A stretch of DNA of 28,876 bases, from contig JAYTHY010000085.1 of NCBI GenBank assembly GCA_043732185.1, positions 1 through 28,876 on the forward strand, read 5' to 3'. Below the pieces are notes generated by a model. That model did not search any database. It was given only the letters and a program-made list of their open reading frames with translations, and was not told the DNA's origin. A program made the position numbers and the translations under genes. This document shows, piece after piece, positions 2,109-26,765 of the stretch. The stretch's first letter is position 1; the number at the start of each line of letters is the position of its first letter. Origin of the DNA: Fibrobacteria bacterium (GTDB lineage Bacteria > Fibrobacterota > Fibrobacteria > UBA11236).

Positions 2109-3527
2109 TTATGGGGAAACGGCTATGGCCAATTCCAATTCCGCGCTGACCCAACCCCGGATTTCCGCCTCGGGGTTGGCACTTGCTCCACCTTGGGTCA
2201 GGCTGATGATTTCGCGCCAATCTACATTGCGGCGATGAACGCCATCTACCACGAAGAAAAAATCCCGTTCATTCCGTTTCCCGGCAATGCAACCCCAATG
2301 ATTCCCGTCCCGGCTGAATTGAAAGGAGTCCCCGACAATCAGGTCGAATTCATAGGCCCGCCCTGAAACCACCACGGCCATTTTGCCTTTCCGGCTGGCC
2401 ACATATCCAAACACCCCGGCGGGTCCGAACAGCGGTGGTCCGGCCCATGTCTCAGCGGCAATTTCCCGACCGTCGATAAGGACATGCCATTGCTTTTGGA
2501 TGCGTGCAGCAAACCCGAATTGTTTGCCATCCATTCCATGGGTAGGCCCCGCGATTTCATCCCAGGAAGAACTCGCATAGCCATCTTCCACCAGAATGAA
2601 TTTGCCGTTTTCCTGGAGGGCGAAGTAGAATGGGATTTCCGATCCGACCTTGAATCCCAAAGTGCCGGATAGAATAGTTTTAAATCGCAGTGAATCGGCA
2701 ATGCCGTTTTTAACCACGAATTCTTGGCCGCCCACCCGCGCTGCGAAAGCGATGAATTGCCCGTCGGGACTGAACACCAGATCGTGCAGATGATCGTAGG
2801 CGCGACTTTCGAAACCCTCCACCACGGCATTCCAGCGATTCCCAGATCGGGCCAAATAGGCGGTTTGGGTAGCGGAAAAATTGAACTTCAATTCTGTAAT
2901 CTCATCATAGGCCGGCCCCTTATTTCCATCCTGCACTACCCTCGCATGGCTTTCTGTTCGCGCCGAATATGCCCAATGGTTGCCATTCCCAAGCAGCAAG
3001 GAACCGACGCCATCGAAAAACGGATCGGGCAACTGATCCATCACAACGGCGGATTGTGCGGCGCGCCGGGCGACATAGGCGAAATGGGATTCATCCGGAC
3101 TGAATCGGAACGTGCCTTTGAGAATGGCATCGAAAGGCGGGCCCTGGAGACTGTCAAGCACCACATGCCACCGACCTTGCCGCTCCGCCGAAAAGGCCAG
3201 ATGCTGTCCCGATGGAGAATAAACCACTTCGCCAATGCCGTCCCATTTTCCGGAATGCCCGCCGGTGTGGAACAATTGCCAATGGTTTCCGGAGCGGGCG
3301 GCATAGGCCCATTTGCCGCCACCTTGGGCAAAAGTGGATACAGCGATGCCGTCATGCCTCCCGATGCGCTGGTCGTCCAAAAACAAACTTTGACTTCCCA
3401 CCGTTTTACGAACCTGGAACGTGCGTGTTCGATCCGGCGTCTTTGCCGTCCAAACCAAAGTGGAAGCGCATCCTGAAAGGAGTCCACAAAAAGCGAGCGC
3501 GGCCTTGCAAAGCCTAGGTGAGATCAT
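2109..3527 (-). CDS. Lipoprotein with about 11 TolB/PD40-like beta repeats
   Basis: Signal peptide with lipobox LSGC. Repeats of about 37 aa of the form FSPDGxHxAYxARxxxxWxVVxDG...YD. Start overlaps the fabZ-like stop (ATGA at 3524-3527). Confidence 0.8.
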   Translation of the reverse strand: MISPRLCKAALAFCGLLSGCASTLVWTAKTPDRTRTFQVRKTVGSQSLFLDDQRIGRHDGIAVSTFAQGGGKWAYAARSGNHWQLFHTGGHSGKWDGIGEVVYSPSGQHLAFSAERQGRWHVVLDSLQGPPFDAILKGTFRFSPDESHFAYVARRAAQSAVVMDQLPDPFFDGVGSLLLGNGNHWAYSARTESHARVVQDGNKGPAYDEITELKFNFSATQTAYLARSGNRWNAVVEGFESRAYDHLHDLVFSPDGQFIAFAARVGGQEFVVKNGIADSLRFKTILSGTLGFKVGSEIPFYFALQENGKFILVEDGYASSSWDEIAGPTHGMDGKQFGFAARIQKQWHVLIDGREIAAETWAGPPLFGPAGVFGYVASRKGKMAVVVSGRAYEFDLIVGDSFQFSRDGNHWGCIAGKRNERDFFFVVDGVHRRNVDWREIISLTQGGASANPEAEIRGWVSAELELAIAVSP

Positions 3528-4147
3528 GGAACCGGAAGGGGTGCGAAGAAGGGCGTCTTGACAGCTCCCGTCATTCGACCCTTGGCAACTACCTTGCCTT
3601 CAACCGTCGCTTCCACTTCAAACCGAGAAATGCCTTCCACGCGATGCGTGAGCGTCACCATGAATTCCAGGCATTGGCCGGCAAACACCGGTTGCACAAA
3701 ACGAAGATCCACCGAACCGCTCATTCCGGGCATGGGCTTGCCCTCCTTGGCCAGCGTTTCCAAACAGGCAGAATTTTCAACTCGGTATCCTGGTTTCATT
3801 CGGTATTTCATTTCCAGATTTCTCAAGCCGGTAAGAATTTCCTCGGGGTCATGCCCACGCTGCTCCCATTGGGCTTGGAGGAAGAAAATGATCTGCAGCA
3901 ACAAAGTGGATTGCCCCATGCCTTCCTGCGTGTAAATCCCGGGCCACAAATGCATCTCCGGAAAATGTCCATCGAACACGGCCTCATTGGCTGACACCAT
4001 CCGCTTGGTCCACAAGACGGATTGCGGGCCACGTTGATAGGCCAGGATGCCATCCACCATGAGCAGGGGACGCCGGTGAGGAATGAGCAATTGAACCACC
4101 TCGGGCCCCAACACCAGCTTTTTTTTGCCTTCCACATCCTGAGTCAT
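3524..4147 (-). CDS. fabZ: FabZ-type 3-hydroxyacyl-ACP dehydratase (CylZ-like) with an internal insertion
   Basis: IPHRRPLLMVD, FDGHFP (catalytic His), PGIYTQEGMGQ (catalytic Glu), RFVQPVFAG and C-terminal ATVEGKVVAKG. Confidence 0.85.
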   Translation of the reverse strand: MTQDVEGKKKLVLGPEVVQLLIPHRRPLLMVDGILAYQRGPQSVLWTKRMVSANEAVFDGHFPEMHLWPGIYTQEGMGQSTLLLQIIFFLQAQWEQRGHDPEEILTGLRNLEMKYRMKPGYRVENSACLETLAKEGKPMPGMSGSVDLRFVQPVFAGQCLEFMVTLTHRVEGISRFEVEATVEGKVVAKGRMTGAVKTPFFAPLPVP

Positions 4148-4157
4148 GAGCGCCCTT

Positions 4158-4904
4158 TCAACCGGTCAATCCGCCGTCTACGATGATTCCCTGTCCCACG
4201 ATATAGCTGGCAGCCTCCGAAGCGAGAAAGACGACGACGTTGGCCACTTCCCGTGCTTCGCCGAAACGCCGCAGGGGAATGTGCTTCTTGGTTTCCTCTA
4301 CGATGCGATGGTTCAGCCGGGCGGCCATGCCAGTGTTCAGCAAACCGGGGGACACCGCGTTGACCCGGACCCCGAGCGGGGCGAGTTCGGATGCCATGTT
4401 CCGAGTCAGGGAAAGCAAACCGCCCTTGGAGGCCGCGTAATTGGCCTGCCCCGGATTGGCGTGCACGCCGGTGATGGATGCCACGTTGATGATGGCCCCA
4501 CGCCGCTGTGTGATCATGGTTTTTACCACTGCCCGCGAACAATGGAAGGCCCCGTCCAAATTCACGGAGATCGTTTCTCGCCAATCCTCGTGCGACAGGG
4601 TGACAAAAAGTCCATCACGCGTAACACCTGCATTATTGACGAGGACATCCAGACGTCCGCGCGCCAAGACGATTTTTTCCACAGCTGCCTTGATTTGATC
4701 CGGTTGCCGAACATCGAATGGACATAATTCACCGTCGCCACCGGCTTCCCGCATGGCCTGCAGGGTTTCCAAGGCCTTGTCCTCCCGGTTGAGAAATCCG
4801 AGATAGACGAAATCACCAATGCTGGCGAAGGCGATGGCAATTTCCCGGCCCAAGCCCCGGGAAGCGCCGGTTACCAATACGGTTCTAGCCGTCGTGGCAT
4901 TCAT
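4158..4904 (-). CDS. fabG: 3-oxoacyl-ACP reductase (SDR, CylG-like)
   Basis: TGASRGLG, NNAGVTRD, GQANYAASK and IVDGG motifs. Start overlaps the upstream stop (ATGA). Confidence 0.93.
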   Translation of the reverse strand: MNATTARTVLVTGASRGLGREIAIAFASIGDFVYLGFLNREDKALETLQAMREAGGDGELCPFDVRQPDQIKAAVEKIVLARGRLDVLVNNAGVTRDGLFVTLSHEDWRETISVNLDGAFHCSRAVVKTMITQRRGAIINVASITGVHANPGQANYAASKGGLLSLTRNMASELAPLGVRVNAVSPGLLNTGMAARLNHRIVEETKKHIPLRRFGEAREVANVVVFLASEAASYIVGQGIIVDGGLTG

Positions 4905-5959
4905 CGCTGCGGGGAATGGATGAGCGGAGGAAACGTGTTTCCAGCCCGCGTGGAATAGCTATGCCGTTGCGGATCCACAAATACGCTGCGGTTATTGATG
5001 GCGGGAGCAGAGAGCGCCGTGACCTGACCTACCATTTTGTCTGCTACATGAAGATCGAACACGATTCCCGAGCAGGCCCACTCTTTTTCCAACAAGGCCA
5101 ACGCCAGCCATTTCCCGAGGGTATCGGAATATCCCGTATTGATCAAGCATCCGATTTCCAGGTCTTCCCGGAACACCTTCGCCCCCGCTGAGAGGGGGTT
5201 TGAAGAGGACACCAACGCCACCCGATGAGTGCAAGATTGGCGTCTGGCCGCCAAAGCTGCAGAACCCGGGTAGGTTTTCTTGTAGGAGATCCTCCATTGC
5301 AATTGGAGCTCTATGGGAGTCATATTGACGGAAACATCCTTGCGGATGTTGAAGAAAAAATTTTCCAAGGCGCACAAATCCAGCGAGGCAATTCCAGCGG
5401 TTTCCAAATCGAATTTTAAACCGGATTTCAAAATCCGTTCTCGCCATTGTGTTGCCGACGTTTTGGGGATGAGTAGGTCATAGGAAAATTCCCCACTGCT
5501 GCCCGCGCGAAAGCAGATGAATCCGTCGCCGCGATAAAAACCCAGAAAGGGTAAGCCGATCACCTCGGTGGAAATCACCTCCGAAAGCAATTCCCAAGCA
5601 TAAGGGCCATTCAGCGACAAGAATTGATGTTCCGATGTCAGAAATTCTAAGTGAAGGTCGGCCCCCACTTCCGCGTATTCCCCAAAAAAGCGGCTCAGTT
5701 TTTCGGCCGTCATGCCGTGGGCCAGTAGCAGGAAATCCTCCCCGTCCGCGCAGACGTAGAGGTCCGCGATTGGATTTCCTGCTTCATTCAACAGCACGGT
5801 ATGCTGCATCTGACCGTCCCGGATGTAAAGTTCGCAGGGGCAGATCCGGTTCAAGGTGGACGACGCAGCCGAACCGGAAATTTTCAGGGCAACTCGATCC
5901 GGATCCTCGGAAAGGGCCACGGACAGCCGTATGGCGCGGACTTCAGATTCAAGCGACAT
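4901..5959 (-). CDS. GcvT-like aminomethyltransferase (folate-binding fold) protein, CylF-like
   Basis: GcvT-fold motifs LLNEAGNPIAD, LSLNGPYAWELL, RAGSSGEFSYDL (cf. RTGYTGEDG), LDLCALE (cf. RDSLRLE) and GYSDTLGKWLALA. Overlaps the ACP gene by 11 nt. Confidence 0.85.
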   Translation of the reverse strand: MSLESEVRAIRLSVALSEDPDRVALKISGSAASSTLNRICPCELYIRDGQMQHTVLLNEAGNPIADLYVCADGEDFLLLAHGMTAEKLSRFFGEYAEVGADLHLEFLTSEHQFLSLNGPYAWELLSEVISTEVIGLPFLGFYRGDGFICFRAGSSGEFSYDLLIPKTSATQWRERILKSGLKFDLETAGIASLDLCALENFFFNIRKDVSVNMTPIELQLQWRISYKKTYPGSAALAARRQSCTHRVALVSSSNPLSAGAKVFREDLEIGCLINTGYSDTLGKWLALALLEKEWACSGIVFDLHVADKMVGQVTALSAPAINNRSVFVDPQRHSYSTRAGNTFPPLIHSPQR

Positions 5960-6257
5960 GGGGGTCTTTCGATCCGGAAGCGAGAACCAAATCGGTTAAG
6001 GTGTTCATGGTGCGCATGGATCCGCTCAGCAGGAACGGCGTGTCTTCGGAAATTTTCACCCCGAATTCGGTTTCCAAAAAAACGACCAGTTCCACGGCAT
6101 CGAGTGAATCCAACCCAAACCCGCTTCCGAACAGGGCTACGTCGGGATCCAGTTCATCCGGATCACGGTCTATTTGCAGGCGCTCAATCAAGGCACCCCG
6201 GAGTTTTTCGAGAACCTCTTTCCGTTCTAGAATGATTTTTTTTTCGTCCATTATCAT
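5949..6257 (-). CDS. Acyl carrier protein (AcpC-like)
   Basis: LFGSGFGLDSLDAVELV phosphopantetheine motif and acidic composition. Start reassigned to ATG 6257 (or 6251), which overlaps the KS stop (TAATG) and follows GAGGG. Confidence 0.92.
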   Translation of the reverse strand: MIMDEKKIILERKEVLEKLRGALIERLQIDRDPDELDPDVALFGSGFGLDSLDAVELVVFLETEFGVKISEDTPFLLSGSMRTMNTLTDLVLASGSKDPHVA

Positions 6258-9348: not shown

Positions 9349-9648
9349 TCACCTTGACGTGTTCAAACTTGTGAAAATCATTACATTAAACATCAAAGTG
9401 ACTAGGCAGGCAATGCCGATCACGATGCCGATTATTGCACCATCCGTGAGTTCCCGCTGGACGGTGCTATCCGCAGCTATTCCGCCGGAATCCCGGGAGA
9501 TGAATGTGGAGTCCTTGATTCCAGCCGGATCCTGATCTGGACGGTTAGGATTCGCCAGGCAAAGCTGCGTGCTTAGTGCCAACAGAAAAAAAACTGCCAG
9601 CTTCGCAATGAAATTTCCAATTCCCGTCCCGTTCATGGCCACATCCAT
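9349..9648 (-). CDS. Small hypothetical membrane protein (signal peptide plus C-terminal TM helix)
   Basis: Exactly fills the operon gap (TGA-ATG junction at 9649/9648). Hydrophobic segments LAVFFLLALSTQLCLA and GAIIGIVIGIACLVTLMF. Start may be ATG 9636. Confidence 0.65.
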   Translation of the reverse strand: MDVAMNGTGIGNFIAKLAVFFLLALSTQLCLANPNRPDQDPAGIKDSTFISRDSGGIAADSTVQRELTDGAIIGIVIGIACLVTLMFNVMIFTSLNTSR

Positions 9649-10494
9649 TCAGTTTCTCAAAAGTGCAAACGCTTCTTCCGGCGTGGAAATCGAAGCGCCC
9701 ACAAGGTTGCCGATTCTTCGTAAGGCACGGTATTGGACGTCTTCGAAAGTCTTTTGGATACCGGCGAGAAACCCCTGAAATTTTTCATCCACCTTTTGGC
9801 GGGCAAAAAGCTCATTCACGGGATGTTTCACCCGCCCGTTTTCTTGAAACCACAGGTATAGCACCTTTAAGGCATCCCTCCGGTCATGGTCCGGATTCAC
9901 GGACTTCACCAGCATTTTTTTCGCATAGGAGTAAAAACTGCTCGCATGCCTAGCCTCATCATTGGACAGATTCAGGGCGATGGCGGACAACACCGGTTCC
10001 GGACTGTGGATGTGCAGGTTGTAATAGTTGGCCGATGCGAACATTTCGGAAATGATGTTCGTGACCAAAGTTCCCATCCGCGACTTCATGAAAGGCGCCG
10101 TGCCCCGGCCCTGTAGAAAAAAGTTGTCATCCACCCTGATTCCGAAATGACCCAACCATTTCAACAGGGCATGGGGATGGCGGGTCTCTTCGTAAAACCA
10201 CACGGAAATCCATTGAGAAAAATCCGGATCGTCCCAAAAATCCTTGAGAAAGCGCTGGCTGGCGGTGAACGTGGTCAATTCTGAGGAGGCACTTTCGCGC
10301 ACCAGATTCAACCATTCCGGGGTCACCTTATCCTTTGCGATGGACTTCCACGGGATATCTTCCATGCGCCACCGCACGCGCTCCGCCTTTTCGGAAAGCC
10401 GGAAACAAAGCCGGTCTTCCGGCAGAATATCCACGGAGGAAACGGCGCCCGTTTTTGCCGGGTATGTGGTCGAAATGTTTTCCTCGATTGCCAT
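9649..10494 (-). CDS. Ferritin-like di-iron enzyme, soluble acyl-ACP desaturase-like
   Basis: Carboxylate/His ligand pattern E(SELTT)..WFYEETRH..E(ISEMF)..NDEARH, comparable to WTAEENRH/DEKRH of acyl-ACP desaturases. N-terminal WxxxDIPW motif. Confidence 0.8.
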   Translation of the reverse strand: MAIEENISTTYPAKTGAVSSVDILPEDRLCFRLSEKAERVRWRMEDIPWKSIAKDKVTPEWLNLVRESASSELTTFTASQRFLKDFWDDPDFSQWISVWFYEETRHPHALLKWLGHFGIRVDDNFFLQGRGTAPFMKSRMGTLVTNIISEMFASANYYNLHIHSPEPVLSAIALNLSNDEARHASSFYSYAKKMLVKSVNPDHDRRDALKVLYLWFQENGRVKHPVNELFARQKVDEKFQGFLAGIQKTFEDVQYRALRRIGNLVGASISTPEEAFALLRN

Positions 10495-12686: not shown

Positions 12687-13742
12687 ATGCAGAATACGGA
12701 AAACGTCCGAAACGACATCCAGGAATACTATGGAAAGGTCCTGAAAAGCACTCTGGACCTCAAGACCAATGCCTGCTGCACAAGCGAGTCCATACCCGAG
12801 CGCCACCGAGCCATCCTGTCGGAGATTCCATCCGAAATCCTGGAAAAGTTTTACGGCTGCGGCTCGCCCATACCCCCAGATCTGGAAGGGAAGATTGTGC
12901 TCGACCTGGGTTGCGGTAGCGGACGGGATGCGTACTTGATTTCCAAATTGGTGGGGCCGGGTGGCCGAGTCATCGGCATCGACATGACCCGAGAGCAATT
13001 GCAAACGGCCGAAAAGTATGTCGTACCCCAAATGAAATTCTGGGGATTTCTGAAAGCCAATCTGGAATTCCGTCAGGGGTATATCGAGGACTTGGCTGCA
13101 GCTGGCATCGAGGATAGCTCTATCGACATCGTCGTCTCCAACTGTGTTCTAAACCTATCACCAGACAAGGAAGCGGTCTTCCGGGAAATTTTCAGGGTTC
13201 TGAAACCTGGTGGCGAGCTATTCTTTTCCGACCTATTCGCGGGACGGCGCATCCCGGAACACCTACAGGCTGATCCGGTGACCCGCGGGGAATGCCTAGG
13301 GGGAGCGCAGTACTGGGAGGATTTCCGCAGGCTTATGCGCAAGGCCGGGTGGCTGGATTTCCGGTTCATATCTAAACGCAGAATGGCATTGGAGAATTCC
13401 GAACTCGAAGCCAAGGTCGGCATGATAGATTTCTATTCCGCGACTGTCCGAGCTTTCAAGATTGCGAACTTGGAAGATATCTGCGAGGACTATGGACAAA
13501 CCGCCGCCTATCTAGGGACTCTCCCTGATATGCCGCATGCCTTCGCACTGGATGATCATCACCTGTTCCAAACGAGTAAGCCCATGTTAATTTGCGGCAA
13601 CACCGCCTCCATGCTTTCCGATACTCGCTTCGCCCGTCATTTCCGTATCACAGGGGATCGCACTATTCACTACGGCCCCTTCGACTGCGCGCCCGTATCC
13701 AGCGGCGAAAATCGCAGTCAGACCGGTAGCAGCTGCTGCTGA
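12687..13742 (+). CDS. arsM: Arsenite S-adenosylmethionine methyltransferase (AS3MT/ArsM type)
   Basis: YYGKVL..DLKTNACC, FYGCGSP, SAM motif LDLGCGSGRD, VSNCVLNL, GECLGGA and C-terminal CC. Confidence 0.85.
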   Translation: MQNTENVRNDIQEYYGKVLKSTLDLKTNACCTSESIPERHRAILSEIPSEILEKFYGCGSPIPPDLEGKIVLDLGCGSGRDAYLISKLVGPGGRVIGIDMTREQLQTAEKYVVPQMKFWGFLKANLEFRQGYIEDLAAAGIEDSSIDIVVSNCVLNLSPDKEAVFREIFRVLKPGGELFFSDLFAGRRIPEHLQADPVTRGECLGGAQYWEDFRRLMRKAGWLDFRFISKRRMALENSELEAKVGMIDFYSATVRAFKIANLEDICEDYGQTAAYLGTLPDMPHAFALDDHHLFQTSKPMLICGNTASMLSDTRFARHFRITGDRTIHYGPFDCAPVSSGENRSQTGSSCC

Positions 13743-20198: not shown

Positions 20199-22172
20199 TT
20201 AGTGAAACAGCCGGAAGCGTAGGGCCTTGGGGCCAGGGCTTAGGAAGATAACCGTATCCACAGCTGGAAAACTGCGATGGGTAATTTGCAGCTTGTGTTT
20301 TCCCGTCGACAATTCCTTATCCTTAACCGGTGTGGTGCCGATAAACCGGCCGTCAACGATAACTTCGGCAAAGGGAGGAGCGGAGGTGATCGTTAAGCTG
20401 GCTTTGAGGGCAACGGGCTTTTCAACTGCCGGTTTATCTGTCGCATTTTTGATGGCCGGGGATTTTTCGCCTGGGGTTTTTAGAAAGTTTGTCTCTGGGC
20501 TATCAGAGGAATTATTTGCGGCCGACACGGATTCTACACGATGAACGACAGGTTTGGCCGCAATGGGAGCAGGTTCTTTGGCGGGAATTGGCTTGGTTTC
20601 CACTGGCGCCTCATTGGAACCGGAAACAATGACTTCTGCAATGCCGGTTTTGGTCGGGTCTTCTAAGGAAATAACTTTAATCCTAGTCTGCCCGGTTTTC
20701 TGACCCCAGACTTCCCCATCCTGAACGGAAGCAATGGACGGATCTTCACTCTCCCAGCGCACCCCCGGGGCGGCATTGGAAGGCTGGACGGCCACCATGA
20801 ACTTGCGTTTTTGACCTGATTGCAATTCCATCGACCCAGGTTGCAACGCTAAGGACACGACTCGATTGCTGGTTTCAGCAGTCGAATTCACGGAAGTGGT
20901 ATTTCCCGCTGTTGAGGTTGCATGCTCCCCTCCACTGCGAAGCACCAACACCAAAGCAGTGACAAGTAGCGCAACAGCAGCCAAACCTGTACCCACCCAA
21001 ATACCAATGGATTTGGTCTTCGACCCGCCGAAATGAGAACCGCTGCGCCCTCCTCCAGAGCTCCCATTGAAATCCATGTCATCGGACTGTTGAGCTTGTC
21101 GGGCTCCTGAACGAATTCCCGAACCTGGCATATCCCGGGATGCATTCGGCTTTACGCCTGTCCCAACCTTGGGCTTCTCCACCTTCATGCCGGCCTTAAG
21201 GGGAACCTTGGCAGCGCGCGGAGAGGTCTCGTCTGGTCCCGGGGCCGGAGTGAGATCGATTACTGTTTGATTGCCCATTTTGCCAACCTTGTCCAGATAG
21301 TCTCTGGTGGTCTCGGCAGGATCCATTACACCCTTTTGATTCAGATATCCCCGAAGCTGTAGAGAAAGCCACCGAGACCCACCACCCCGGCTTTCCGGGC
21401 TCTTTTGCAGCAGGGTTTCTACCAGATTTTCCAGGATCGGATCCACATCCGGAATAATCGTAGCCAAAGAGGCATGGGGCAGATCACAGATATTGCGCAT
21501 GATGGTGGGAATATTGGGACCAGTGAATGGTTTTCGGCCCGACAGGCAATAATAAAAGCAGGCACCCAGAGAAAACATGTCGGTTTGATGCGTCGGTTTT
21601 TTACCGTCGATTTGTTCCGGCGACATGAAATTGGGCGAGCCGAGAATGCTGCCGGTTTGGGTCAAATTTTGTTCGCTGATATGGGCAATTCCAAAATCCG
21701 CGATTTTAAGTTTGCCATCCCCCATGAACATGATGTTTTCAGGTTTGATATCCCGATGGACGACATTAAATTTTTCAGCGGTTTGGAGGCCTTCGGCAGC
21801 CTGGAAAATGACGGCTGCGGCGACTTCCGGTTCCATGGGTTGCCCACCCAACAGATTCAGAATAAACTGCAAATTTGGACCATCGATATATTCCATCACC
21901 AAATACTGAATGTCCCCTTCGACACCGTAGTCGAAAATTTCCACAATATTGGGATTTCTAAGTCCAGCTGCCGTTTTAGCTTCGACCGTAAACCTGTCGA
22001 GTAGATTGGCATTGGTGGAAAGATGGGAGTGGATGACCTTGACGGCCACCATGCGATTCAGAGCTGGATCTTCGGCCAGATAAACGGTGGCCATGGCACC
22101 CTGACCCAGTTTGGTTAGGGCATTGTACCTACCAAATTTAAGTTGGGCGGTGCTCTTTCCCGGTTTTGACAT
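20199..22172 (-). CDS. Hanks-type membrane Ser/Thr protein kinase with extracytoplasmic Ig-like (Big_2) and PEGA domains
   Basis: LGQGAMATV, VAVK, HRDIKPEN, DFG, MSPEQ and DMFSLG. TM helix IGIWVGTGLAAVALLVTALVLVL. Big_2 segment VRWESEDPSIASV..G. PEGA segment ITSAPPFAEVIVDGRFIGTTP. Confidence 0.93.
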   Translation of the reverse strand: MSKPGKSTAQLKFGRYNALTKLGQGAMATVYLAEDPALNRMVAVKVIHSHLSTNANLLDRFTVEAKTAAGLRNPNIVEIFDYGVEGDIQYLVMEYIDGPNLQFILNLLGGQPMEPEVAAAVIFQAAEGLQTAEKFNVVHRDIKPENIMFMGDGKLKIADFGIAHISEQNLTQTGSILGSPNFMSPEQIDGKKPTHQTDMFSLGACFYYCLSGRKPFTGPNIPTIMRNICDLPHASLATIIPDVDPILENLVETLLQKSPESRGGGSRWLSLQLRGYLNQKGVMDPAETTRDYLDKVGKMGNQTVIDLTPAPGPDETSPRAAKVPLKAGMKVEKPKVGTGVKPNASRDMPGSGIRSGARQAQQSDDMDFNGSSGGGRSGSHFGGSKTKSIGIWVGTGLAAVALLVTALVLVLRSGGEHATSTAGNTTSVNSTAETSNRVVSLALQPGSMELQSGQKRKFMVAVQPSNAAPGVRWESEDPSIASVQDGEVWGQKTGQTRIKVISLEDPTKTGIAEVIVSGSNEAPVETKPIPAKEPAPIAAKPVVHRVESVSAANNSSDSPETNFLKTPGEKSPAIKNATDKPAVEKPVALKASLTITSAPPFAEVIVDGRFIGTTPVKDKELSTGKHKLQITHRSFPAVDTVIFLSPGPKALRFRLFH

Positions 22173-22394: not shown

Positions 22395-25223
22395 ATGATT
22401 GCCAATTCCGTCCGTTCCATCCTGGAAAAACTGAACAAGTATAACCGCAGCATGCTCGAAGGCGCTGTGGGCTCCTGCGTCACGCGATCTCATTATGAGG
22501 TAACGGCCAGCCATATTCTCACCCAGGCCTTGGAAGAAGGCAAAGGCGATCTCCCCTACATCCTCGCCTATTTCAAAGTCAGCGGCGCGCTTTTTAAAAA
22601 TGCATTGGTGCAGGACCTAAAGGAACTGCGCACCGGCAATACCGGCAAGCCAGTTTTTTCACCAACTTTCATGACAATGTTGGAATCTGCTTGGGCGGAA
22701 GCCTCACTCAATCTCGGCCAAAGTGAAATCCGCACAGCAGCCATTCTCCTAGCCCTAAGGCGCGCGCCCGGATCCGTGTCTCCAGGACTCGCCGATCAAT
22801 TGGCCATGATCAATCCAGAAACGTTGCTCGCCAAGTTCGCTGAAATCACAGCCCATTCCAAGGAATCGGAAGACGCACCGCAAGGTACGGACCGTAACGC
22901 AGATGGTACTACAGCCGAAGGCTCGTCTTTATCTCGTTTCACCGTTGACTTTACGGAAATGGCACGCAAGGGAAAAATCGATCCCATCTTTGGCCGCGAC
23001 AATGAAATCCGCATGATCATCGATATTTTATCCCGCCGCCGCAAAAACAACCCAATCATGGTCGGTGAAGCCGGCGTTGGAAAAACCGCCGTGATCGAAG
23101 GATTGGCTTTACGCATTGCCCAAGGTCAAGTGCCTGACATCTTAAAGAATGTGGAAATCCGTATGTTGGACATGGGGCTTTTGGCCGCAGGTGCGGGTGT
23201 GCGCGGCGAATTTGAAAACCGGCTAAAAGGTGTGATCAAGGAAGTTAAAGCGTCCACCACGCCAGTCATCCTCTTTATCGATGAAACGCATACCATCATT
23301 GGGGCAGGTGGAGAAGCCGGCCAGAACGATGCGGCCAACTTGCTCAAACCGGAAATGGCTCGCGGTGAACTGAAAATCATGGGCGCCACAACCATCACTG
23401 AATTCCGGAAGTATTTCGAAAAAGATCCTGCCATGGCACGCCGCTTCCAAATGGTGCGCATCGAAGAACCGGATCCCGCCACGGCAGCCATCATGCTTCG
23501 CGGCCTACGTACTAACTATGAAAAATTCCACGGCGTAAAGATCACGTATGACGGTGTCAAAGCAGCTTGCGACCTCTCGCATAAATTCATTGCCGGTAGA
23601 CAGTTGCCGGATAAGGCTGTGGATCTGCTCGACACCGCGGCTGCCCGGGTGAAAATGGGTTTGTCTGCCAAGCCACCAGTACTCATCAATCTGGAACAAG
23701 CCATCGAGAATATGAAAATCGAAATCATCGCGCTGGAAAAGGACGATGCCTCCGGAATCTTGACCGATCGGGAAATTCTTGGCAACACCAAAGCCCGCTT
23801 GGAACTTGCAATAGCGGAAACCGCCGAAGTCGAAACCCGCTGGTCCACAGAACTAGGAATGGTCAAGGATATCATCGCCATTCAGGATAAGCTGGTAGCG
23901 AACAAGCCTGGCGCCACTGCCGACAAGGATTCCAAGCCTGCCAAAGGCGCTGCCAAAGAGCTCAAAGAAGCGCCCGTTCCGCTTACTGCAGAGGAAGAAA
24001 CCGCCCTGCGCTTGGACATGGAAGGCAAGTGGAAGGCACTGGAAGAATTCCAAGGCGAAAACGCCACCGTGCATGCCCATGTGGGTCCGGAGGTGATTGC
24101 CCAGATTATCGGTGAATGGACCGGCATCCCAGCTGGTAACATGCTAAAAAATGAAGCCCAGTCCTTAATAGAACTGGAACGCACCATCATCGAACGCGTA
24201 GTGGGCCAGGATGCCGGTGTCGAGGAAATTTCCTCTACCTTGCGAAGTGCTAAACTAGGACTCAGCAATCCCGAAGCGCCTATGGGTGTCTTTTTGATTA
24301 CCGGCCCCTCAGGCGTGGGTAAGACGGAAGTGGCTCGCGTTATCTCAGACATTCTGTTCGGCGGTGAAAAATTTGTGGTCACCATCAATATGAGCGAATA
24401 CCAGGACAGCATGTCCATCACCCAGCTTAAAGGGGCCAGTGCCGGTTATGTGGGCTATGGAGACGGCGGCGTGCTAACCGAAGGAGTGCGGAAACGACCC
24501 TATACTGTGGTTATTCTTGACGAGGTTGAGAAAGCCCATAAGGATGTTCTTAACATGTTCTACCAGGTATTCGACAAGGGCATGCTGCGCGATGGTGAAG
24601 GCCGGGACATCAGCTTCCGAAATACCGTCATCATCATGACCAGTAATTTAGGTCTGGACACCATCACACGCGTCCATGCGGAAGGCAGCGCCAACTCCCT
24701 GGATGAATATCGTCAGGCTATATTACAAGAATTGACCGATCACTTTGCCCCGGCGCTGTTGGCCCGGTGTAAGGTGGTTCCGTTCTTGCCACTTGACTCG
24801 GAAGTTCTCAAACGCATCGTCTTCATGAAGCTCATGAAACTAGGCAAGCGATTGATGGAGAAGCATAAACTGGCTTTTGCAGTGGCACCGGAGGTTGTCC
24901 GAGATATTGTCATGCTATGCACCACGTCCCAAAGCGGTGCGCGTAATATCGACACCATCATCGACCAGAAATTGATGCCTGAGATCTCAAAAAATCTCCT
25001 CTATCATATGGCCGAAAGCAAAATCTTTACGCATCTATTCCTGTCTGTGAATGATTCTGGAGGATTCGCCTGCTCCTTTTCCGTCGGGGACTTCCAACTT
25101 CCTGAGAATCAAGCGCCCTTGGCGGAAGAAGACTCTGAAGCGAATGGCGGCGTGGTATCGGAAGAGGAAGCAGCTTTGGTGGCGGAAGGTGAAGAGACGA
25201 CGATTATTGGCAAACCGGAATAA
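22395..25223 (+). CDS. tssH: Type VI secretion AAA+ ATPase ClpV/TssH
   Basis: ClpV-type N-terminus (KLN..R..LEGAVGSCVTRSHYEV), DPIFGRDNEIR, ILSRRRKNNPI, Walker A GEAGVGKT and GPSGVGKT, RQLPDKAVDLLDTA, WTGIP, GYVGYG, QVFDKG and SGARNID. Confidence 0.9.
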   Translation: MIANSVRSILEKLNKYNRSMLEGAVGSCVTRSHYEVTASHILTQALEEGKGDLPYILAYFKVSGALFKNALVQDLKELRTGNTGKPVFSPTFMTMLESAWAEASLNLGQSEIRTAAILLALRRAPGSVSPGLADQLAMINPETLLAKFAEITAHSKESEDAPQGTDRNADGTTAEGSSLSRFTVDFTEMARKGKIDPIFGRDNEIRMIIDILSRRRKNNPIMVGEAGVGKTAVIEGLALRIAQGQVPDILKNVEIRMLDMGLLAAGAGVRGEFENRLKGVIKEVKASTTPVILFIDETHTIIGAGGEAGQNDAANLLKPEMARGELKIMGATTITEFRKYFEKDPAMARRFQMVRIEEPDPATAAIMLRGLRTNYEKFHGVKITYDGVKAACDLSHKFIAGRQLPDKAVDLLDTAAARVKMGLSAKPPVLINLEQAIENMKIEIIALEKDDASGILTDREILGNTKARLELAIAETAEVETRWSTELGMVKDIIAIQDKLVANKPGATADKDSKPAKGAAKELKEAPVPLTAEEETALRLDMEGKWKALEEFQGENATVHAHVGPEVIAQIIGEWTGIPAGNMLKNEAQSLIELERTIIERVVGQDAGVEEISSTLRSAKLGLSNPEAPMGVFLITGPSGVGKTEVARVISDILFGGEKFVVTINMSEYQDSMSITQLKGASAGYVGYGDGGVLTEGVRKRPYTVVILDEVEKAHKDVLNMFYQVFDKGMLRDGEGRDISFRNTVIIMTSNLGLDTITRVHAEGSANSLDEYRQAILQELTDHFAPALLARCKVVPFLPLDSEVLKRIVFMKLMKLGKRLMEKHKLAFAVAPEVVRDIVMLCTTSQSGARNIDTIIDQKLMPEISKNLLYHMAESKIFTHLFLSVNDSGGFACSFSVGDFQLPENQAPLAEEDSEANGGVVSEEEAALVAEGEETTIIGKPE

Positions 25224-25238
25224 TATTTTCCGGGTTGC

Positions 25239-26765
25239 CTAACCCTTAAATCCGTATTTGGCACGATTCCTGTCGATGAGAATCATAGCGATGATTTTAG
25301 GGACGTACTCGTTGGTTTCTGTTTGCATGAATCCCATGCGGTACACATACCAGAAATCGCGATCATGGACGGGATCCTCGATTTGGCGCAGAACACGGCG
25401 CATTTTATTTCCTCCGGCGTTGTAAGCTGCCATTGTTAAAGCTGCATCCCCGAACTCTGAATAGAGGAGATGCAGATACTTGGCTGCGGCTCGCGTCGAC
25501 AATTGAGGCTGTGTTCGATCGTCCTGATTAGATGGCAGGGTTTTCCATTCTTCGGGGACGATAAGATTGTACTCCCGGGCCGTTTCTGGAACCATTTGCC
25601 ATAATCCCCTGGCATCATTCCCGCTCTGAGCCACCGAATCCAATAGGCTTTCCTGCATTGCGATGTAAAAAAAGTCTCCGGGAACTTTCATTCGTTTCAA
25701 TTCCTGCCGGATAAGCGATTCGTATTTCGATTTACGGGCGAATCCGGTGACAAGGGTGGCTCTATTAGCCGGCAAACAGAAATAGTCTATTTGATCCTGA
25801 ACACTTTTTATAAAAGTTTCCGGAATGATAAATCCTTTTTTCCCCATCTCTTCCAAAATTTGATGGACATCATTTCCAAGCGCCAAACTATAGGTTGGTG
25901 CACGGTCCGGAATTCTTAATTTTTCTCGAATCTGGACCAATTGATGCTCGGCTGAAAGCAACTGGTCGACGAGTTTTATTTTTTCCGCCAATACTTCAGC
26001 GCCCGGACCGGATACGGCGTTTAAGCCAAACTCCAAGGCATGGATTTGGCTTACCAAATCTCCTTGCTTTTTTATTCTCGCACGATAATTCAAGTTTTGA
26101 AAAGCTAAAACGGAAACAGCAAGTAAAAAGAGGCATCCAATTCCACCACCAATCCAGAAAATTCGTTTGCGCGAATTAGCGAATGTGTTGCCAAGCTCAC
26201 CCATCCAATCCGCCACACGTTCGGGTAAAACCCCTCCTTGCAGCAGTCTCGATAGCCGCGCTGGATCCTTTAATAGGGCCTGCATGACCTCTTGCGGACT
26301 ATTTGATTTTCTCAATCGTTTGGCCATTTCCATGATCAAACTTTTACTGCCTTTGGTAGCACTGTCAGAAAACATCCCAACATGGGCAACCGCCATGGTT
26401 GTGGTGGCACGCCCGCGAAGCATAAGCGAATCGCCTTCGTCACTGACCCCCTGGGTAACGTCCATGACGTTCACCCGCATGGCCGGTCCCGCGGGACCAA
26501 GGCTGATAATCTCCCCGCCTAAAAGCTCTCGTTCCGCTATGCGGGTCTTACCCACAAAAGTGCCATTCGTACTGTCCAAGTCCTTGAGCCAAAGAACTTG
26601 GGCCTTCAAGACAACTAAGGCATGCCTGCCGGAAACGATGCCGTTGTTTTCACCCGTAAAGGATAAATCATTGCCATGGCTACGGCCTAAGGTAAGCGAA
26701 GAGACGACCTCCACCTTTTTGCCTTGAGCTGAGCCATCCAACATTTCCAGGAAAAATCGTTTCAA
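25239..26765 (-). CDS. FHA domain - TM - coiled coil - SLT (MltD-like) lytic transglycosylase fusion
   Basis: TTG start after GGAGGA. FHA residues LGRS, VSGRH and STNGTF. TM helix IFWIGGGIGCLFLLAVSVLAF. SLT motifs QES (catalytic Glu), GLWQM, AAYNAG and ETNEYV. Confidence 0.88.
   Translation of the reverse strand: MKRFFLEMLDGSAQGKKVEVVSSLTLGRSHGNDLSFTGENNGIVSGRHALVVLKAQVLWLKDLDSTNGTFVGKTRIAERELLGGEIISLGPAGPAMRVNVMDVTQGVSDEGDSLMLRGRATTTMAVAHVGMFSDSATKGSKSLIMEMAKRLRKSNSPQEVMQALLKDPARLSRLLQGGVLPERVADWMGELGNTFANSRKRIFWIGGGIGCLFLLAVSVLAFQNLNYRARIKKQGDLVSQIHALEFGLNAVSGPGAEVLAEKIKLVDQLLSAEHQLVQIREKLRIPDRAPTYSLALGNDVHQILEEMGKKGFIIPETFIKSVQDQIDYFCLPANRATLVTGFARKSKYESLIRQELKRMKVPGDFFYIAMQESLLDSVAQSGNDARGLWQMVPETAREYNLIVPEEWKTLPSNQDDRTQPQLSTRAAAKYLHLLYSEFGDAALTMAAYNAGGNKMRRVLRQIEDPVHDRDFWYVYRMGFMQTETNEYVPKIIAMILIDRNRAKYGFKG

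Follow-up and report, generated by a model that had tools for sequence, protein, structure and literature searches.

The 28,876-nt stretch of Fibrobacteria bacterium contig JAYTHY010000085.1 analyzed here (hereafter the window, whose positions serve as coordinates throughout) carries a minus-strand operon in which a GcvT-like gene directly follows an acyl carrier protein (ACP) gene. We find that the GcvT-like protein is a member of a CylF-like branch of the GcvT fold, and that this branch is linked to the ACP by conserved gene adjacency and by natural ACP fusions. The protein looks like a core part of a dissociated polyene-type synthase, composed of a fused ketosynthase/chain-length factor (KS-CLF), ACP, FabG, FabZ and usually FabD. 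It very probably works on this ACP/KS-CLF machine and not in glycine or folate metabolism. As its role we tentatively put forward folate-independent chain initiation on the phosphopantetheine arm, a proposal that could well prove wrong.

Family and fold of the GcvT-like protein

The protein matches both Pfam domains of GcvT (PF01571, E 1.2e-27; PF08669, E 6.5e-7), lacks the N-terminal ~30 residues of GcvT and carries a conserved C-terminal extension. Its AF2 model (pLDDT 95.8, from a 56-row alignment) shows the three-domain GcvT fold. The best Foldseek matches are T-proteins (TM-score 0.83 to PDB 1YX2 and 1WOO, 21-22% identity), whereas YgfZ and Iba57 proteins match more poorly (0.60-0.68). 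The top target-normalised TM-score, 0.84, was obtained with PDB 3TTG, a 337-residue 'putative aminomethyltransferase' of Leptospirillum. Atlas matches were generic aminomethyltransferase clusters only, and the closest relative found (97% identical) comes from a Fibrobacteria metagenome-assembled genome.

On the gcvT equivalog model TIGR00528 the protein scores 82 bits against a cut-off of 235.85. With a hidden Markov model (HMM) of the window family, high scores are reached by a protein of an E. coli O157 island (238 bits), a Rahnella protein (230), an annotated Bacillus wiedmannii CylF (164) and a Priestia protein from a plasmid (159), compared with 92 for the GcvT of the same genome, 90 for SoxA, 78 for E. 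coli GcvT and 2 for YgfZ. A maximum-likelihood tree of 41 rows (26 hand-chosen family rows and 15 references, YgfZ left out) separates the family and ketosynthase-linked proteins from 11 GcvT/SoxA/DMGO-type rows with support 100/99. In this tree, which has long branches, an unfixed root and a single annotated CylF (that of B. wiedmannii, not of group B Streptococcus), the O157 group is the closest neighbour of the window family, as its sister, and Bacillus CylF lies farther away. We label the window protein CylF-like, not CylF.

A canonical GcvT is encoded on contig C52 of the genome, GcvH on C5 and GcvP on C5 and C8, which makes the window gene an additional copy of this fold. The absence of gcvH and gcvP near it is uninformative by itself, because the canonical gcvT also lies away from both genes; it was discarded as evidence. 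One representative (P0249) joins a GcvT-like domain to the start of a short-chain dehydrogenase/reductase in a 408-aa chain, which may be a ketoreductase fusion or a frameshift artefact.

Linkage to the acyl carrier protein

A genome scan matched 139 stretches, of which 109 were confirmed and the best 80 were kept as loci. They belong to Fibrobacterota, many Myxococcota, Gemmatimonadota, Poribacteria and others, and include Sorangium cellulosum So ce56. A scan of the phylum matched 37 of 151 genomes, two with the window type and 35 with a sister branch, and 16 of the 35 sister loci were fetched. Gene searches covered 96 loci, residues were counted on 151 rows (150 best cluster representatives plus the window protein) and neighbours were clustered from 1017 selected open reading frames plus added ACPs.

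An ACP gene lies upstream of the GcvT-like gene in 75 of the 80 loci, which are all the informative ones, as in the remaining five the contig stops no more than 142 nt from the gene. When the two genes are separate (n = 73), they overlap in 65 pairs and lie within 30 nt of each other in 68; two loci (L021 and L073) carry an in-frame fusion instead. The ACP is also directly upstream in all 16 fetched loci of the sister branch. ACP-GcvT fusions make up 14 of the 150 best representatives, share 26-48% identity and all retain an intact serine motif. Since the four fusions placed in the tree sit at separate positions, a single fusion event or a lone sequencing slip is unlikely.

The window ACP has an N-terminal extension with Arg12. 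Across 56 family ACPs Ser51 is invariant and Arg12 is conserved in at least 90%. The extension arginine is present in 10/10 ACPs of clusters with the GcvT-like gene versus 0/3 of KS-CLF clusters without it, the latter being a small control set. The fusions and the adjacency are indirect signs, by which the protein may be predicted to dock physically on the ACP.

In the window, the stop of the ACP gene and the start of the GcvT-like gene overlap by 11 nt. This overlap was rejected as proof of a special partnership: all eight operon junctions are tight (gaps of -11 to +19 nt, with -1 for KS-CLF/ACP and -4 for GcvT-like/FabG), so it is ordinary and no sign of a particular pairing. An earlier note on this DNA had reported the overlap, the altered GcvT motifs described below and the lack of gcvH and gcvP in the window, and had related the protein to CylF and to the ACP rather than to a glycine-cleavage H-protein. 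All of this is borne out.

Folate site and catalytic residues

The motifs RAGSSGE (residues 151-157) and LDLCALE (193-199) align with RTGYTGE and RD-x-x-RLE of solved T-proteins. The available portion of PMC9551070 names Met56, Asp101, Tyr197, Glu204 and Arg233 as the residues of human GcvT that contact tetrahydrofolate (THF). Their counterparts in the window protein are Arg22, Asp66, Ser154, Asp161 and Leu193; one of the five is kept exactly (Asp66), three are replaced and one is changed conservatively. Among the 137 rows that cover all five positions, 5 keep none, 107 one, 24 two and 1 three. Asp66 is retained in 139/151 rows. The Tyr197 position is Lys or Arg in 116/151, the Arg233 position is Arg in 4/151, and the Glu204 position is Asp in 59 and Glu in 21.

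E. coli GcvT has a catalytic relay (D96/N113/R223) and an H-protein docking residue (R292). The relay is lost in the window protein (Ala65, His81, Leu193) and the R292 column is unconserved. The N113 position (window residue 81) is Glu or Asp in 129/151 rows, and both Asp66 and an acidic residue 81 are conserved in the family and in all 16 sister-branch proteins. Residues common across the branch are W122, P137, E157, E199, W222, P319 and S325, of which Ser325 is invariant in the 142 rows that cover it; no Cys is invariant among the 151 rows. Judged by alignment, most folate and lipoyl-arm residues have been lost.

These substitutions bear on the idea, proposed in the earlier note, that the protein carries out C1 or amine chemistry with THF on an intermediate tethered to the ACP. 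It is akin to the guess, in the available portion of PMC3674703, that CylF yields a methylated derivative. The fold is nearest to true T-proteins, the N10-activating Asp is kept, position 161 is acidic in 80/151 rows and 14/16 sister proteins have Met at the Met56 position, all in favor of such chemistry. Set against this are the loss of Met56, Tyr197 and Arg233 in the window protein and the fate of the pterin-binding Glu. All 16 sister proteins have a hydrophobic or other non-acidic residue in its place, and the O157 protein has Met, the Priestia protein Lys and the Bacillus protein Gln. In addition, according to the part of the review PMC4315905 at hand, folate-pathway inhibitors raise granadaene, not lower it, an effect for which the proposed pathway gives no explanation there. 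Iba57 is a precedent for the loss: in the portion of PMC9551070 at hand it keeps the same Asp and the arm tunnel, lacks the THF pocket and works without THF. As 112 of the 137 rows keep none or one of the THF residues, and given the Iba57 precedent, THF use by the window protein is unlikely. The THF-dependent C1 or amine chemistry of the earlier note is weakened and probably wrong: of the five THF residues only the Asp is kept exactly, one other is conservatively substituted and three are exchanged, and that Asp is also found in THF-independent Iba57.

The biosynthetic cluster around the gene

Gene frequencies were counted only in loci with enough flanking DNA. The GcvT-like gene stands, as cylF does, in a cluster with genes for ACP, KS-CLF (62/63 loci), FabG (67/73) and a FabZ-like dehydratase (47/57); FabD is found in 57/80 loci. 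Further members are an all-helical protein with a twin-arginine (Tat) signal (57/58), a beta-propeller (31/49) and a ferritin-like protein (15/54).

The KS-CLF has an intact Cys134/His266/His303 triad, conserved in 64/64 rows, and a second half without Cys. An active ketosynthase, a Cys-less CLF, an ACP, a ketoreductase and a dehydratase together match a highly reducing type II polyketide synthase (PKS) or polyene synthase. The ketosynthase matches PDB 6KXD and 6QSP, which we take to belong to the ishigamide KS-CLF and aryl polyene ketosynthase pathways. As in those synthases, no enoyl reductase was seen, a statement that covers the conserved neighbours, and for this reason a conjugated polyene is, by analogy, the likely product, probably in the form of a polyene lipid. 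The cluster differs from highly reducing type II PKSs in that KS and CLF are fused, a GcvT-like gene is present and no adenylation or FabH starter enzyme is a conserved neighbour. Aromatic-PKS CLFs decarboxylate through a Gln at the Cys position. This Gln occurs in only 2/64 rows here, and since it is missing as a conserved residue, the CLF is unlikely to decarboxylate in the same manner.

In single-query tblastn searches, FabH-like, GcvH and GcvP genes were not found in the 96 loci or the window, thioesterases were found in 2/96 loci and AMP-binding enzymes in 3/96. FabH is likewise absent from the annotation of four plasmid clusters that carry the GcvT-like gene. At E 1e-3, a single B. wiedmannii query of limited reach found no CylE-like gene in the 96 loci, in the window or in the genome, and the window has no GNAT Pfam match. 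The earlier note's remark that the operon has no evident starter or release enzyme agrees with these searches, which revealed neither FabH nor a thioesterase or CylE-like gene in the window.

The same core is found with different partners. A two-partner secretion pair and ABC/LolA-like export accompany it in E. coli O157 and Rahnella, a thioesterase in Priestia, and a CylE-like GNAT, a thioesterase and rhamnose genes in Bacillus. In the sister branch, a B12 radical-SAM domain is fused to KS-CLF in 15/16 loci and a PlsC-type acyltransferase is present in 9/16. These sister loci (L100-L115, for example L101:1757-5521) encode the B12 radical-SAM/KS-CLF fusion, often a second KS-CLF, then ACP, GcvT-like protein, FabG and FabD, with the PlsC-type acyltransferase, FabZ and an FMN-reductase/SCP2 protein on the opposite strand.

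This diversity argues against a role of the GcvT-like protein in release or acyl transfer, in which the phosphopantetheine thioester would be cleaved and the chain passed to water, an amine or a lipid. Thioesterase, CylE-like and PlsC-like genes were not found in the 80 loci of the window branch, the GcvT reaction involves breaking a C-S bond of a swinging arm and Ser325 is invariant, each of which would suit such a role. Relatives of the protein nevertheless stand beside dedicated off-loading genes in Bacillus, Priestia and the sister branch, and the Tat helical protein is an alternative candidate acceptor. Release, also raised in the earlier note, is thereby weakened and we consider it quite unlikely.

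A further possibility is a metal-cluster maturation factor of the YgfZ/Iba57 kind, serving the ferritin-like or radical-SAM partners. The radical-SAM domain of the sister loci and, in the available portion of PMC9551070, the loss of THF use by Iba57 within the same fold would fit. The KGC-x-GQE motif, with its essential Cys, is, however, absent from 269/269 homologues and from the window protein, no Cys is invariant, E. coli YgfZ barely registers on the family HMM and the ferritin-like gene is found in a minority of loci. Such a function is highly improbable.

Near the core lies a variable tailoring slot, which holds a ferritin-like ExxH protein (15 loci), a flavin halogenase-like protein (13) together with a DUF1702 protein (12), a flavin oxidoreductase that we read as phytoene-desaturase-like (11) or an RPE65-type oxygenase (4); examples include L033, L053, L028 and L013. 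The Tat helical protein is the hallmark of the window branch. Its Arg3 is invariant and a homologue matches TAT_signal, while the window copy has no Pfam match, its AF2 model reaches pLDDT 77 and resembles no known fold clearly (best Z 5.8, among helical bundles), and its best Atlas score is 0.79. It could be an acceptor or carrier of the product. In several Poribacteria loci (such as L036, L037 and L048) it is duplicated.

Comparison with known systems

Both the granadaene operon (cyl) of group B Streptococcus and cyl-like clusters from Bacillus share with the window branch the core of FabG, ACP, FabZ and fused KS-CLF. B. wiedmannii CylF falls on the same side of the tree as the window protein, apart from the GcvT, SoxA and DMGO rows, but the two are only 23% identical. 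CylE-like, glycosyltransferase and cylX/cylA/cylB-like genes are not conserved neighbours in the window branch, and the window operon itself contains no CylA ABC exporter, glycosyltransferase or CylE-like gene. The window branch, for its part, has the Tat helical protein, the propeller and the ACP fusions.

In the available portion of PMC6985545, CylF is predicted to produce the ammonia that goes into ornithine, and the fatty-acid genes are noted to occur together in other contexts. A role in supplying ammonia from glycine for ornithine, or as a spare T-protein, is very hard to reconcile with the clusters described here: CylE-like, gcvH and gcvP genes were not found in the 96 loci, the GcvT-specific Arg233 is lost in nearly all rows, and no ornithine cyclodeaminase was found in the genome of the window (marker completeness 100%), the sole place searched. 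A canonical T-protein is, moreover, encoded elsewhere in that genome.

The nearest named relatives are a gene of the aminomethyltransferase family in the fatty-acid-synthase island of E. coli O157:H7, presumably OI-47, and its homologues in Rahnella, Enterobacter and Proteus, which are 26-28% identical to the window protein (230-238 bits) and form its sister group. The substitutions are those of the family (Asp kept, Asn to Glu, Tyr to Lys). Two fetched regions (O157 and Rahnella) have the order FabG, FabZ, ACP, GcvT-like, KS-CLF; unlike the window, the O157 island also encodes AcpS, a second KS-like protein, ABC/LolA-like export and a two-partner secretion pair. A literature search that covered few subscription journals found no characterisation of this island.

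With GcvT itself (PDB 1WOO, 1WSR/1WSV and 3A8I) the window protein shares the three-domain fold (TM-score 0.80-0.83), the catalytic Asp and the logic of a swinging-arm carrier. It differs in sequence (18-22% identity), in the missing N-terminal residues, in the replaced Met56, Tyr197 and Arg233 and the variable Glu204, and in having an ACP as contextual partner with no H- or P-protein nearby. Iba57 and YgfZ share the fold, the loss of folate contacts and the kept Asp, and Iba57 has Arg at the Met56 position, as does the window protein (PMC9551070, available portion). They differ from it in their KGC-x-GQE Cys motif, the poorer structural match and the context, which here is lipid synthesis.

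Proposed role in chain initiation

Because the same core recurs with unrelated downstream and off-loading genes, and always with an ACP, a shared core step is indicated for the GcvT-like protein. Because the folate residues are mostly lost and the gene is adjacent or fused to that of the ACP, a new job on a carrier-bound chain is likely. Initiation is favored since elongation, reduction, dehydration and malonyl loading each have genes, whereas FabH and the decarboxylating Gln of the CLF are missing. The priming role raised in the earlier note is plausible in this light.

In the proposed mechanism, the swinging-arm tunnel of GcvT would be retained and would accept the phosphopantetheine arm of the ACP in place of the H-protein's lipoyl arm, without THF. 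The rebuilt pocket, with Asp66 kept and, in most relatives, Glu or Asp at position 81 and Lys or Arg at 154, may then either decarboxylate malonyl-ACP to acetyl-ACP or place a short acyl starter on the dedicated ACP, which is the least certain step. Elongation by KS-CLF, FabG and FabZ would then lead to a conjugated polyene, which the ferritin-like protein would tailor and the exported helical and propeller proteins would handle at the envelope.

Several observations weigh against this proposal, which is drawn from sequence context. At positions 81 and 154, where acidic and basic residues, respectively, prevail among the relatives, the window protein carries His and Ser, and in B. wiedmannii CylF the place of Asp66 is taken by Leu, so the candidate catalytic residues are not universal. 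Three clusters with a fused KS-CLF but no GcvT-like gene were seen. A FabH-like gene is present in one of them and missing from the others (L088 and L090), which indicates that such synthases can start without the GcvT-like protein. A housekeeping FabH-like gene on contig C46 could also supply starters. Lastly, in a distance correlation over 52 loci, the protein followed KS-CLF (partial r 0.53) more closely than the ACP (0.15) and no ACP-specific signal was found, although the test is weak, as the short ACP gives noisier distances and lengths have an effect.

The last point is better accommodated by a non-catalytic core factor, whose channel would shelter the reactive polyene on the ACP or bridge ACP and KS-CLF, setting processivity or chain length. 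No catalytic residue is invariant across the branch, the common residues look largely structural, and in Iba57 the Asp is conserved yet dispensable (PMC9551070, available portion). Yet Asp66 and the acidic residue 81, both of them lining what was once the active site, are conserved in most rows and in all sister proteins, and polyene KS-CLF clusters without the gene exist. We regard sheltering as rather unlikely, and retain folate-independent initiation as the tentative proposal.

The operon and its surroundings in the window

The operon is a run of nine minus-strand genes from 10494 to 2109, in the order ferritin-like, 99-aa, 323-aa, KS-CLF, ACP, GcvT-like, FabG, FabZ-like and beta-propeller (Table 1). 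A scan for promoters and terminators stayed at chance level (8 sites versus 5.9 expected, and 11 versus 14.7).

Table 1. Genes of the minus-strand operon in the 28,876-nt window
Feature	Position	Strand	Basis
Ferritin-like protein, two ExxH motifs, 281 aa; variable tailoring gene	9649..10494	-	PF03405 E 3.6e-4, below cut-off
99-aa protein with hydrophobic stretches	9349..9648	-	no Pfam match
All-helical protein, twin-arginine-like signal (plus Cys), C-terminal hydrophobic hairpin, 323 aa	8370..9341	-	
Fused ketosynthase/chain-length-factor-like protein (CylI-like), 697 aa	6257..8350	-	Pfam, NCBIfam
Acyl carrier protein, 102 aa, Ser51 in LDSLD	5949..6257	-	PF00550 E 3e-9
CylF-like GcvT-fold protein, 352 aa	4901..5959	-	Pfam GCV_T + GCV_T_C, AF2, Foldseek, tree
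FabG-like ketoreductase (CylG-like), 248 aa	4158..4904	-	NF009466 FabG above cut-off
FabZ-like dehydratase (CylZ-like), 207 aa, carrying insertion	3524..4147	-	PF07977
Exported PD40/TmcD-like beta-propeller, 472 aa, lipoprotein-like N terminus	2109..3527	-	PF07676

FabD, which lies between FabG and FabZ in most relatives, is missing at this place in the window (4147-4158). It is also missing from several complete loci (L001, L003, L004, L039, L050 and L076). A housekeeping FabD is encoded on contig C46 and could serve the synthase of the window. The ferritin-like protein weakly resembles soluble acyl-ACP desaturases (plastid acyl-ACP desaturase match, E 0.053). The 99-aa protein is found in one of the 80 loci (L001, a near-identical relative) and has no wider conservation.

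A plus-strand gene at 1019-2101 encodes a 360-aa Rossmann-like protein without Pfam match; it converges on the end of the operon and is present there in L003 as well. Another plus-strand gene (12687-13742) encodes an arsenite-methyltransferase-like protein that stays under every NCBIfam cut-off. Apart from the operon, a ClpV/TssH gene of a type VI secretion system (22395-25223, plus strand, above cut-off) is grouped with genes for a Ser/Thr kinase (20199-22172, minus strand) and an FHA-SLT protein (25239-26765, minus strand). No further type VI gene was found among the 23 window proteins scanned.

Significance

The granadaene operon has seven core genes, cylF among them, and the functions published for CylF are, in the literature portions available, conflicting predictions; those of PMC6498181, PMC13235161 and PMC13724373 contain nothing on CylF function. 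The published ammonia role does not fit the clusters described here, since they have no CylE and no H- or P-protein nearby, Arg233 is lost and no ornithine cyclodeaminase was found in the genome. The occurrence of the same protein branch without nearby CylE or H-protein separates CylF from ornithine supply and ties it to ACP and KS-CLF. The cluster type is undescribed and widespread, and the ACP-linked branch of the GcvT fold is apparently uncharacterised: a literature search of few subscription journals and no supplements found no report on GcvT-like proteins in ketosynthase clusters. The natural ACP fusions, and also the environmental, non-pathogen sources, offer simple substrates for a direct assay.

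More broadly, CylF-like proteins might constitute a new class of ACP-acting enzymes, responsible for folate-independent priming of KS-CLF polyene synthases across several phyla, with a remnant pocket that may bind folate as an inhibitor; taken as a whole, we hold this to be doubtful. If true, such inhibition would also explain why antifolates raise granadaene. A positive assay would extend the GcvT fold by a further reaction and reveal a novel means by which type II polyene synthesis is started or controlled. It would also make accessible a large family of clusters, so far orphans, from Myxococcota, Fibrobacterota, Gemmatimonadota, Poribacteria, enterobacteria and bacilli.

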